From assembly GCA_964473825.1 (NCBI GenBank), contig CAYYQL010000001.1:64001-128000 (forward strand): a stretch of DNA of 64,000 bases. The letters run 5' to 3'. Positions 45,501-48,500 of the stretch are shown in pieces (position 1 is the first letter of the stretch; each line of letters opens with the position of its first letter). This stretch comes from an uncultured archaeon (GTDB lineage Archaea; Asgardarchaeota; Thorarchaeia; Thorarchaeales; Thorarchaeaceae). The notes under the pieces were generated by a model. It had not been told where the DNA came from, ran no database searches, and saw only the letters and a list, made by a program, of their open reading frames with translations. The position numbers and the translations under genes are program-made.

Positions 45501-48500
45501 TCTTCGTATGAGTCGGAGAGACCATCACCGTCCGAGTCAAATCCAACACCTGACGACTCGTACTCGTCCTCGCCCTTGCTGGGACTGAGGTCCCACGGAC
45601 CGCCGGGCTCCCAGGTGAACTTGGCCGAATCGGATATGAACAGGAATCGGAACTTCACCTTGACGGTGAATATCAGCCGTAACGTGATCTTCATGGGCGA
45701 CGGACTCGCAAAGTCTTGGAAGAACGTCAGTATGATCTCCAAGGACCCGTCGATGGTGATGGCCACGATGATGAGTTCAATCGGAATATGTATCGCCACA
45801 CCAAAGATGATGGTGAGCGTCATGCTGGAGACTTCGGGTTCGGTGGACGATGCTGCCTTCTTGATTATGTCAATGATTATTTCGAAATAGACCTCGACTG
45901 TTATGGAGTCAAGGCCCAAGAACTCTGCCACTGCGTTGAGTGCTCCCCCACCCACACCTGCGGTGAGGAAATCGAGCAGCGTGAAGACTTTGCCGATGTG
46001 GATCTTGATGTGCAGGCCCCACTCAACAATGCGGAAGAAGTTATCAAAGTCAAACTGACCGTTCTTGAAGGTAAAGAGATTGAGAACGAACTTTGCACTG
46101 CCCTCGAAAGAGAGCTTAAGACCCAGAGTAGTGAGCATGGTCTTCATCAGGGGGTTCTTCTCAGTATCGAAACCACCCACACCGAGCTCCGCGTAGAATT
46201 GCGGACTGATTTCGAAGAAGGAGAACAGGGTCTTGAAAAAGTCGCCAATGTTCGCCATCGAGAAAACTTCGCGAGCATCGAATATCATGCTGACTACCAT
46301 GTCGAATATTGGGTCCAGGTCAATGGCGAAGTTTGCGCGTATGCCTAATGCATACGTCAGGTCGAACAGCGACCAATCCCCAAGACCGACGGGCAGGCTC
46401 CCGGAGAAGCCTAATATGTCGTCAAGGCCTGCAAAGAGACCTTCAATGGTGTTCTCGATGTCCTCAAGAACTGGATTGAGAAGACCACCTAGCCAGTCGA
46501 ATACCTTACCAAGTAACCATTTGACACCGTTGGTAAAGATGTCCTTGATGTCCATAAAGAAGGAGAGAATCTCCTTGACCATTTCTAGGTCTAGTGAACC
46601 TCCGATGAGCCCCTCTGCGAGATCGAGGATCTCATCGATGATCTGGATGGCACTGGGCATATCGTCCTTGTCTAACCCAAAGGCCTCCGGGAAGAACGAC
46701 TGGAAAAGTTTGAGAACAGCATCGATGGGTACATCATCAAAAGCAGGGAAGCTACCCAAGATGGAGCCAGCACTCATCAGAAGAGCCTGCATGACTCCCT
46801 GGAAGCTCTGACCTTTGATACCCTGCACCATGTTTATGATGCCGCCAACAATCTCACCAGCCGTGTCAAGAATCGCATCCAGCTCACCGTCTGCTGCAAG
46901 AGCAACGGGGCCAGGCGAAGTCGGAAATGCATCCTCAGTATCAAGGAACTTGATCACGTTCTTGACCATGCTCGGTATGTCGCTAAGCTCAGAAACGAAA
47001 TTGTCCACGGTCTTGCTGACCATCTGCTTCAGCGCGTCTTTGTTTGTAGCAATGGCAATTACCCCGAGGATGGGCTTGAGAGCCTGATTGAATGCCTCGA
47101 CGACATCGGCCACTCCTGAGCCGAGAAATTCGGTCGCCACATCCTCAGCTATCTCAAAGATATCGGGCAGTGCACTCTTGTCGAAACCTTCTACAAATAG
47201 ACCCGAAACCAGCGAAATAACATCACGCACGATATCCTTGACTTCACCAGATACTCCGGTAATTCCGCTGTCGAGAATGGTTTGAATCTGACTGGTGAAA
47301 GCCGAGAAGTCTGAGAGACCATCCTCTTGGAATGTCTTGATGACACCGAAAATATCCTTGGCCAAGTCCTCGACTCCGCCGGGGATGTTTGAAGCTCCAA
47401 CAATGTCGTCAAGCATGCTCTGTGCCAGCTGAATCAACGTCGTCGTGTCAAACTCGTCCACTAGGTCGACAACGCTCATGGCCATGTGGATGATGGACAT
47501 GACCTTGTCCACGACGTCCTCAAGTCCCGTCACCGAGAGAATAGAACCGAGGAGATCGGTGCCCACCTCTTCAATGAAGTCCAAGAAATTGCCACTGGTA
47601 ATGAAGCTAACAATCGATTTGATGAAACTGACAATACGAGGGAGGAGAGTAGAAACCTCGCTGGGAATCATGCCGATAGTCGCGGCCAAAGTCTTATTGA
47701 GTAATGACTCGAGTGTGTTGGTTGTGAAGAAACTGAAGATTGCATCAAAGATTCCCTTCTCACCTTTCACTAGGGAGCTGATTGCATTCCAGAGCCCATC
47801 ATCAGCGTCGAGGATCTGCCCTATGAAGTCCTTCAACATGTCGGGAACGCTGTCAGGCAGGAGAACCTGCACGAGGTCACCCACAATTTCCAGAATACTT
47901 CCTAGGTCACCCCTGAAATTGAAGAGGGCCTTCATAATGATGTTGAGATAGTCCTTGAACTCGGCCATGAACGGGAACTCATTAGCCAAGGCATTGATGA
48001 CAGACTTCAGAGGAGACTCCATGTCGAAGTCCGCCACAATCCCGATGATGGGTTCTATGACCGAGAAGAGCTGCTGAATTGTTTCTATGAGGTCACTGGG
48101 AATCGATATAACAGTGGATCCTGAGTCACCAAGAACGCTCAGCAATACATCGATAATCTCGCCTATTGGCCCGCGTAGGGCAGATAGCAGAGGTATCTCA
48201 CCCAAAACTAGGTCGTCTGCATTGAGTTCAGCTTCAGAACTGATTTTGATTGGCGGCGTGAAGTCTTCAGGGAGTTCTTCTTCAGTGAGCTCCTCAAGCT
48301 GACCATCTTCAGACATGTGATAGTACGTCTTTTCAATCGTGGGGGCATGTTGCTCCCACATCCTTCTTGTCCTTTCTTCGCGGGATGCCTCATCTACTTC
48401 ACCGACAGGATTGATCGGCTCAACTGTTCGTTTGAAGAAAGCGTCGAAATTATCACCGTATATCTTGAGAGCCATAGTTTGAATGTCTTCGTGAGCCTTC

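Follow-up and report, generated by a model that had tools for sequence, protein, structure and literature searches.

A conserved helix-plus-meander head on a stalked surface protein of Asgard archaea, encoded next to an FG-GAP propeller protein

We analysed a 64,000-nucleotide stretch of the genome of an uncultured archaeon of the Thorarchaeaceae (Asgardarchaeota; contig CAYYQL010000001.1, positions 64,001 to 128,000; the whole stretch is called the window below) and focused on a region at window 45600-48210 on the minus strand, which corresponds to residues ~308-1177 of P0001, the product of gene 1 (residue n begins at window 49132-3(n-1)). Judged by its sequence, this region is the head of a large surface protein and represents an undescribed domain family, in which a sheet module of ~310 amino acids (aa), consisting of one long helix and a 10-strand meander, is the conserved core. 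Most of the helical part, which an earlier note on this DNA had described as apolipoprotein-like, is a variable insertion (residues 355-865) present only in a long form of the protein. Our preferred interpretation, with a probability of about 0.45, is a conserved surface contact complex that depends on Ca2+ and has two subunits, the region forming the distal head of one of them; the layout of the complex would be integrin-like, and the head would have a compact core surrounded by a variable shell. The lipid or membrane role proposed in the earlier note is on balance not favoured, the majority of the tests pointing away from a machine dedicated to lipid transfer.

Cultured Asgard archaea live in tight partnerships and bear unidentified 'complex surface proteins' on a single membrane instead of a surface layer (S-layer; PMC9834061). 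The gene pair described here is a concrete candidate for such complex surface densities and for cell-cell contact molecules, because it is large, is conserved across Asgard lineages, carries Ca2+-binding repeats of the eukaryotic adhesion type and has a homologue (P0028) in a cultured organism. At the conserved core of the head lies an amphipathic sheet of outer-membrane-like type, and the organism that encodes it has no outer membrane. Full-text literature searches returned no description of this head or of the gene pair; the 'integrin-like' Asgard family reported previously (PMC9258230) is a different protein, which adjoins tubulin/FtsZ genes.

Structure of the distal region

A long helical tract followed by a long-stranded sheet had been predicted by eye, and the AlphaFold2 model of residues 291-1177 (model 1; 54-sequence alignment, mean predicted local distance difference test score (pLDDT) 78, predicted template-modelling score 0.64) bears this out nearly to the base. 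About 27 helices extend through residue 901 (window 46430), the last of them 53 residues long, and 10-11 strands, mostly of 14-19 residues, occupy residues 907-1174 (window 46414-45611) with five short helices interspersed. The strand motifs quoted in the earlier note lie at residues 1004-1019, 1038-1048 and 1149-1163 of P0001. The order of a signal-like segment, the head, a stalk of TSP3 repeats and a single C-terminal transmembrane helix implies that the head is membrane-distal, so that the position previously suggested, beyond stalk and anchor in a stalked type-I surface protein, agrees with the domain order if the predicted signal peptide is cleaved.

The helical part is rich in L, I, D, V, G, S and F, close to the I/L/F/D/G-rich composition noted before. 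Apolar residues (AILMFVW) make up 48.7% of it, D+E 15.6% and K+R 5.2%, and its grand average of hydropathy (GRAVY) is +0.54 without any hydrophobic run of transmembrane length. No strong internal repeats were detected in the helices when six segments were compared by hhalign (probability <=64%). The sheet region contains 12.3% F, 1.1% Y and 1.1% W. All three parts of the head carry a negative net charge: the helices -64, the sheet -13, and the N-terminal domain (N-domain) that precedes them -27.

The alternation of hydrophobic residues in the strands, also pointed out earlier, gives the sheet one apolar face across 54 homologues, with a mean Kyte-Doolittle value per long strand of +1.7 to +3.7 on this face and of -0.5 to -1.9 on the opposite one. 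Since it holds over all 54 sequences, the alternation is a property of the family and not a matter of chance, and in eight short-form proteins (see below) the strands keep identical apolar and polar faces. Mean-field direct coupling analysis (DCA) of the sheet module (104 sequences, effective number of sequences (Neff) 87, evaluated against a positional null) placed all adjacent antiparallel pairs from E3-E4 through E9-E10 at or above the 99th percentile of the null, which confirms an up-and-down meander. Neither a barrel-closing coupling of E1/E2 to E9/E10 nor an E2-E7 pairing rose above the null, at a Neff of only 87.

A conserved core and a variable insertion

The same genome encodes, on contig 26, a short-form paralogue of 1594 aa (P0062), the N-domain of which aligns with residues 68-354 of P0001 (24% identity, E 9e-15), while its sequence from residue 375 onwards aligns with P0001 from residue 866. 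From both flanking alignments it follows that residues 355-865 of the helical domain, about 510 aa, are missing from P0062. The least conserved stretch of the head is also mid-helical (residues 488-690), and the most conserved 20-residue segments are 1132-1151, 1046-1065, 312-331 and 1003-1022. Conservation and the comparison with the short form thus identify the C-terminal long-helix part together with the meander as the conserved unit. The second most conserved segment, 1046-1065, belongs to a Gly-rich element with the consensus FTLLDFLTGGxGGGAL..EYLGLD, in which T1051, G1059 and L1074 are invariant and D1054, T1057 and G1073 are present in 53 of the 54 sequences.

Comparison with known folds and families

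The earlier note had held that the fold could not be assigned by eye, and sequence searches likewise yielded neither a family nor a fold. P0001 has no match to any Pfam or NCBIfam family beyond the TSP3 repeats, and the same applies to 33 family members searched against Pfam, apart from Baculo_PEP_C in two of them (see below); the stalk is the sole Pfam match in P0001 (PF18884, E 1.9e-22, 79.2 bits against a cut-off of 25, in six stretches). Searches of the PDB with the region, by sequence (phmmer) and by profile, returned only noise or designed helical repeats, with apoA-IV and apoLp-III at E 0.7-0.8 in the profile search. Foldseek found nothing at E<=1e-3 among the viral structures of BFVD, and all ESM Atlas matches scored <=0.90, comprising Bacteroidota clusters as well as DUF6603 at 0.78-0.80; the latter matches are leads only.

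When model 1 was compared with the PDB by Foldseek, MTP ranked first (6i7s, E 1.1e-4, probability 0.91; 8eoj, E 1.8e-3), and lipovitellin (1lsh), apoB100 (9bd1) and honey-bee vitellogenin (9ens/9enr) were within the first 13 matches. All of these are large lipid transfer proteins (LLTPs), in which, as in P0001, a helical domain is followed by a large amphipathic sheet. This ranking, the domain order and the apolar composition would suit a cavity for lipid binding or transfer that is either a convergent counterpart or a distant relative of the LLTP cavity. Its pocket, walled by the apolar face of the sheet and by the amphipathic helices, would serve to hold or extract lipids, or other hydrophobic molecules, at the periphery of the cell. 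However, the LLTP matches have template-modelling (TM) scores of 0.08-0.10 and root-mean-square deviations (rmsd) of 35-38 Å (MTP: TM-score 0.09, 37 Å; E 1.1e-4 to 3e-2 for the group), and LLTPs are absent from the best 50 matches both on rigid VIA re-alignment of model 1 and when the helices, together with the N-domain, were searched by Foldseek without the sheet. The latter search gave a best E of 0.037 (LeuT-type transporters, Nup85 and separase, which is noise), and its VIA lists were filled by the N-domain. The structural check that the earlier note had asked for upheld the layout of helices and sheet; the first rank of the LLTPs was not accompanied by a rigid superposition among the best 50 matches.

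Three further observations speak against such a cavity. The N-domain is an alpha/beta domain and not the beta-barrel of LLTPs: in a second model (model 2) it is a beta-alpha-beta, flavodoxin-like domain with pLDDT 91-98, and the structures that match it best include a de novo alpha/beta protein, SAVED-CHAT, PurE and LacI/PBP halves. Unlike in LLTPs, the helical domain of P0001 consists for about 510 aa of an insertion that is variable and optional and that is the least conserved part of the head. The couplings described in the next section, finally, hint that the apolar face contacts helices of its own module. We consider a lipid cavity decidedly improbable on this evidence. Membership in the LLTPs was rejected, since the N-terminal beta-barrel (betaN) and a signature are missing and no rigid superposition was seen among the best 50 matches; the Vitellogenin_N/LLTP families of Pfam match neither P0001 (E<=0.01) nor the 33 members. 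The repeating-beta-groove (RBG) proteins (VPS13/ATG2/AsmA/TamB) and TULIP proteins (BPI/CETP/SMP) gave no Pfam match in the 33 members and did not occur in the best 50 Foldseek or VIA rows for model 1, a listing that would not by itself exclude them.

Exchangeable apolipoproteins are K/R/E-rich and hydrophilic, whereas the helices of P0001 are poor in K and R, have a GRAVY of about +0.5 and lack strong repeats. Such a protein was rejected on composition and on the absent signature, as neither the ApoLp-III nor the Apolipoprotein family of Pfam matched P0001 or the 33 members. In the weak tail of the family profile search (E 1e-21 to 1e-6) only the helical part was matched, and the sampled matches include phage tape-measure proteins and others that score for Baculo_PEP_C, ApoLp-III or Apolipoprotein A1/A4/E; Baculo_PEP_C was also reached at E 1.5e-4 by two of the 33 family members, P0001 itself having no such Pfam match. 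The similarity of the helices to tape-measure and apolipoprotein-like proteins looks compositional rather than homologous.

The sheet, by comparison, is structurally similar to the wall of a transmembrane barrel (Foldseek/VIA), and the outer-membrane barrels FepA and EspP match it with a Foldseek probability of ~1.0. The best barrel match is the open EspP intermediate (8qn4_F); closed 12-strand barrels fit with an rmsd of 7-8.5 Å and halves of 16-22-strand barrels with 4-5 Å. Other walls compared were those of CymA (4d5b), TamA (8us1), FhaC (4ql0/4qky) and TonB-dependent receptors, for instance FecA (1kmo). In contrast to these barrels, the module resides inside a type-I protein, beside a stalk, in an archaeal host with a single membrane. 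It also differs from them in having about 10 strands with helices between them, no closure signal and a poor fit to closed 12-strand barrels, and its sequence identity to them is 4-12%, with no relation at the sequence level. Outer-membrane proteins typically have Tyr/Trp aromatic girdles that face the lipid, and no such girdle was found in the sheet of P0001, which is Phe-rich and poor in Tyr and Trp. Omp85/BamA (PF01103) had no match in the host genome (assembly G000; 3.27 Mb, 95.7% complete), the control being matched in seven bacterial genomes, and the Asgard cells imaged to date possess a single membrane (PMC9834061). A genuine outer-membrane protein was rejected because of the missing BamA, the missing aromatic girdle and the wrong cellular context, and the barrel wall is kept as a geometric analogue.

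Packing of the apolar face

In the DCA, 1.28% of the pairs between an apolar helix position and an apolar-face position had couplings >0.8, compared with 0.27-0.60% in the other three classes, where the helices are those of the module itself (long helix 866-901 and internal helices) and the pairs are non-independent at a Neff of 87. This roughly twofold enrichment is seen although apolar-face positions vary less. The apolar residues 874, 885 and 896 of the long helix couple to strand residues of the apolar face, and by a rough area estimate the 83 helical residues of the module could cover about two thirds of the ~59-position apolar face; the uncovered rest could plausibly be shielded by linker helices common to both forms. 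These data are suggestive of an apolar face that packs mostly against the module's own helices, which would give a compact, very acidic fold. The helix-to-face couplings hint at an ordinary buried core, an outcome that the earlier note itself had named as evidence against its lipid proposal.

A different possibility, which we regard as unlikely, is that the head is a membrane-engaging tip, in which the half-barrel (alone, oligomerised or closed), the Gly-rich element or both would insert into the membrane of a partner. The variable helical domain would then shield the apolar face until contact, and the protein might serve in syntrophic contacts, whether as a latch, as a pore-former or as a device similar to a fusogen. 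The geometry of the sheet, that of an open outer-membrane barrel wall, and the highly conserved to invariant Gly-rich apolar element would fit such a tip; its composition and the DCA couplings do not, and the strongly acidic head is unsuited to docking on anionic membranes. Peripheral proteins usually dock on anionic membranes through cationic patches. A cationic membrane-docking patch of this kind has been described in a study of Asgard START proteins (PMC12139934).

A more far-reaching proposal, that the conserved half-barrel and the Gly-rich element grip or enter the membrane of a partner cell, or extract or hand over lipid there, while the stalk extends the head and the helical shell keeps it soluble, seems clearly unlikely to us. 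If such a membrane-gripping half-barrel did exist, the giant gene pair would be hardware of the membrane contacts between Asgard archaea and their partners, and a prokaryote with a single membrane would be putting an outer-membrane-like sheet to use, for which there is no known precedent. Contact of the sheet with foreign membranes or lipids would, if true, also be of direct relevance to the way in which the archaeal host interacted with its partner in eukaryogenesis. If the sheet is merely a folded core, the family would still be a useful marker and a target for assignment by cryo-electron tomography.

The FG-GAP partner gene

Gene 2, which encodes an FG-GAP multi-propeller protein, starts with a GTG at window 42588, one base past the TAG stop codon of gene 1. 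An abutting pair was also found in three distant Asgard genomes, where the FG-GAP partner measures 2665-3155 aa and its start overlaps or adjoins the stop, within 0-2 nucleotides. The short-form gene for P0062 is likewise followed immediately by an FG-GAP gene, which is paralogous to gene 2 from the first residue (28% identity, E 2e-44), and the cassette was therefore duplicated as a unit. A protein of 631 aa that carries CUB, PPC and caspase (Peptidase_C14) domains is encoded upstream of the short-form cassette.

In a relative with 73% identity (G022, contig C28; L046 1628-16321, minus strand), both genes form one open frame of 4897 aa, in which the K/S tail of the gene 1 part runs directly into the signal segment of the partner, a junction that allows a workable topology with two transmembrane helices. 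Fused proteins of 4348 and 4360 aa (P0069 and P0230) were found in metagenomes. Search rows for two further genomes, G154 (open frame of 4716 aa) and G204 (2778 aa), suggest the same fusion. Based on gene order and these fusions, the product of gene 2 is likely to be the partner subunit of P0001.

At the gene level, an FG-GAP propeller gene is thus paired with a gene for a second single-pass protein, as expected of an integrin-type system. The pair resembles integrins in that there are two single-pass membrane proteins, one of them with FG-GAP propellers, and in that P0001 combines an alpha/beta domain at its N-terminus with a stalk of repeats and a tail in the cytoplasm. P0001 gave no vWA/MIDAS or integrin-beta match in Pfam, and no I-domain was among the best 50 rows for the N-domain, the matches of which are generic flavodoxin-like folds. 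It shares TSP3 repeats of the DxDxDG type with thrombospondin/COMP but does not possess the C-terminal lectin domain of thrombospondin, and its NCBIfam scores for CglD and MtsD, two proteins of bacterial gliding and cohesion, are far below the cut-off and stem from the TSP3 repeats only. The helix-plus-sheet head has no counterpart in integrins, thrombospondin/COMP, CglD or MtsD.

Distribution and proposed role of the family

Asgard metagenome-assembled genomes labelled Thor-, Loki-, Hod- and Heimdallarchaeota contain full-length relatives of ~2050-2340 aa with 28-94% identity over the head. The Loki relatives include Candidatus Lokiarchaeum ossiferum, and a member labelled Kariarchaeaceae was also found; the homologue in the cultured Lokiarchaeum, P0028, shows 48% identity over the head. 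Among 201 sampled genomes of the phylum, 54 had a match at E<=1e-10, with a patchy spread over families: 24/43 in the family to which the window belongs, 7/7, 9/21 and 5/10 in others, and 0/40 and 0/19 in two more. A profile search of 1.84 billion representative proteins returned 79 matches at E<=1e-10, of which 57 reached E<=1e-30; the best-scoring ones are long forms, and short forms match in the sheet module only. A cluster represented by P0120, which matches the sheet module, is labelled Bathyarchaeota, and HYR-domain proteins as long as 1992 aa are among its members; the sheet module may reach beyond the Asgard archaea, or contigs labelled Bathyarchaeota may be mis-binned. The DNA of the window itself was found in microbial-mat metagenome runs from two studies, two of these runs being possibly its source; no RNA run was among those listed.

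Several paralogous cassettes are present per genome. This multiplicity, and the fact that the cultured Lokiarchaeum, which has the homologue P0028, is without an ordered S-layer and displays protruding 'complex surface proteins' on its single membrane (PMC9834061), would fit a passive envelope component, in which the giant pair serves as a canopy or spacer in place of an S-layer and the head is a folded cap without a specific ligand. The sheet module and the Gly-rich element are, however, far more conserved than a spacer needs, and the patchy distribution (0/40, 0/19, 24/43) does not fit an essential envelope layer, so that a purely passive role appears improbable.

We therefore return to the two-subunit surface contact complex. 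Subunit A would comprise a signal peptide, the flavodoxin-like N-domain, the helices, the meander, the TSP3 stalk, a transmembrane helix and a basic tail, and subunit B would be the abutting multi-propeller FG-GAP protein with its own transmembrane helix. The helix-plus-meander module would be the compact working core, which residues 355-865 shell or extend, and the whole might act as a Ca2+-stiffened contact or adhesion device, the head of which binds subunit B, a ligand on another cell or surface, or both.

Several points weigh against this proposal. With a GRAVY of +0.5 to +0.6, the head is unusually greasy for an extracellular adhesin, and its invariant Gly-rich apolar element would equally suit a membrane-active loop. 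Four LLTP structures (MTP, lipovitellin, apoB100 and vitellogenin) do stand among the first 13 Foldseek matches. The burial of the apolar face depends on a rough area estimate and on coevolution data with a weak signal (Neff 87, non-independent pairs), and the 59 positions of this face exceed the obvious cover by the module helices (about 40 apolar residues). The heterodimer, the binding of a ligand and the dependence on Ca2+, moreover, are parts of the proposal that we infer.

Features of the locus and neighbouring genes

The features of P0001, of its partner gene and of the short-form cassette are listed in Table 1. The stalk of P0001 contains 18.9% D and has a net charge of -183, and the cytoplasmic tail contains 20% K and 13% S. 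The tail (window 42593-42760, minus strand) carries a repeated KKSTSKKK unit, which is encoded by near-identical 18-nucleotide repeats; the tail of the G022 relative is of similar length but has a different K/S/E-rich sequence.

Table 1. Coordinates of gene 1 and its parts, of gene 2 and of the short-form cassette (window positions, except for the last row, which is numbered within L010; ORF, open reading frame)
Feature	Position	Strand	Basis
Gene 1, P0001, predicted 2180-aa type-I membrane protein	42590..49132	-	ORF list and translation
Residues 1-46, basic N-region and 19-aa hydrophobic segment, probable signal peptide ending near VWA/GQ (predicted)	48995..49132	-	KD19 peak 25-43; family consensus PQA..AG
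Residues 66-261, flavodoxin/Rossmann-like alpha/beta N-domain	48350..48937	-	Model 2
Residues 270-345, small beta/linker piece including conserved motif 312-331	48098..48325	-	Strands in both models
Residues 346-901, acidic apolar-cored helical domain, about 27 helices	46430..48097	-	Models and composition
Residues 849-901, single 53-residue helix entering the sheet; C-terminal half belongs to the conserved core	46430..46588	-	Model 1 helix 559-611
Residues 907-1174, amphipathic beta-meander (open 'half-barrel'), conserved, containing five short helices	45611..46414	-	
Residues 1046-1075, apolar Gly-rich element that joins E5 and E6 and is nearly invariant	45908..45997	-	Conservation
Residues ~1190-1985, stalk of about 800 aa of bacterial-type TSP3 Ca2+-binding repeats	43178..45565	-	Pfam PF18884
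Residues ~1990-2095, Thr/Tyr-rich domain close to the membrane, containing several N-glycosylation sequons	42848..43165	-	Composition, sequon positions; boundaries by eye
Residues ~2100-2180, transmembrane helix (2102-2123) and K/S-rich cytoplasmic tail	42593..42835	-	KD19 peak 2.81 at 2102-2120
Gene 2, 2693-aa FG-GAP multi-propeller protein, signal peptide and C-terminal transmembrane helix	34507..42588	-	Pfam FG-GAP_3, FG-GAP; termini
Short-form cassette, L010 (G000:C26:7000-16000): 1594-aa TSP3 protein, FG-GAP gene, upstream ORF	1399-6183, 2-1402, 6696-8591	-	

The other neighbours in the window are unrelated to the pair and comprise histidine kinases, a remnant of an insertion sequence inside a luciferase-like gene and a dehydrogenase. 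The PAS/GAF histidine kinases (1073, 367 and 366 aa) are encoded at window 26184-32531, a few kb downstream of the FG-GAP gene, and large kinase neighbours of this kind were not seen at the three distant loci examined. At window 49304-50874, an ORF of 207 aa with a MerR-type helix-turn-helix and a Cas12f/TnpB TNB domain is located between the pieces of a luciferase-like monooxygenase gene. On the plus strand, at window 4133-16038, three consecutive ORFs of 1249, 1271 and 1266 aa look like tandem large paralogues.

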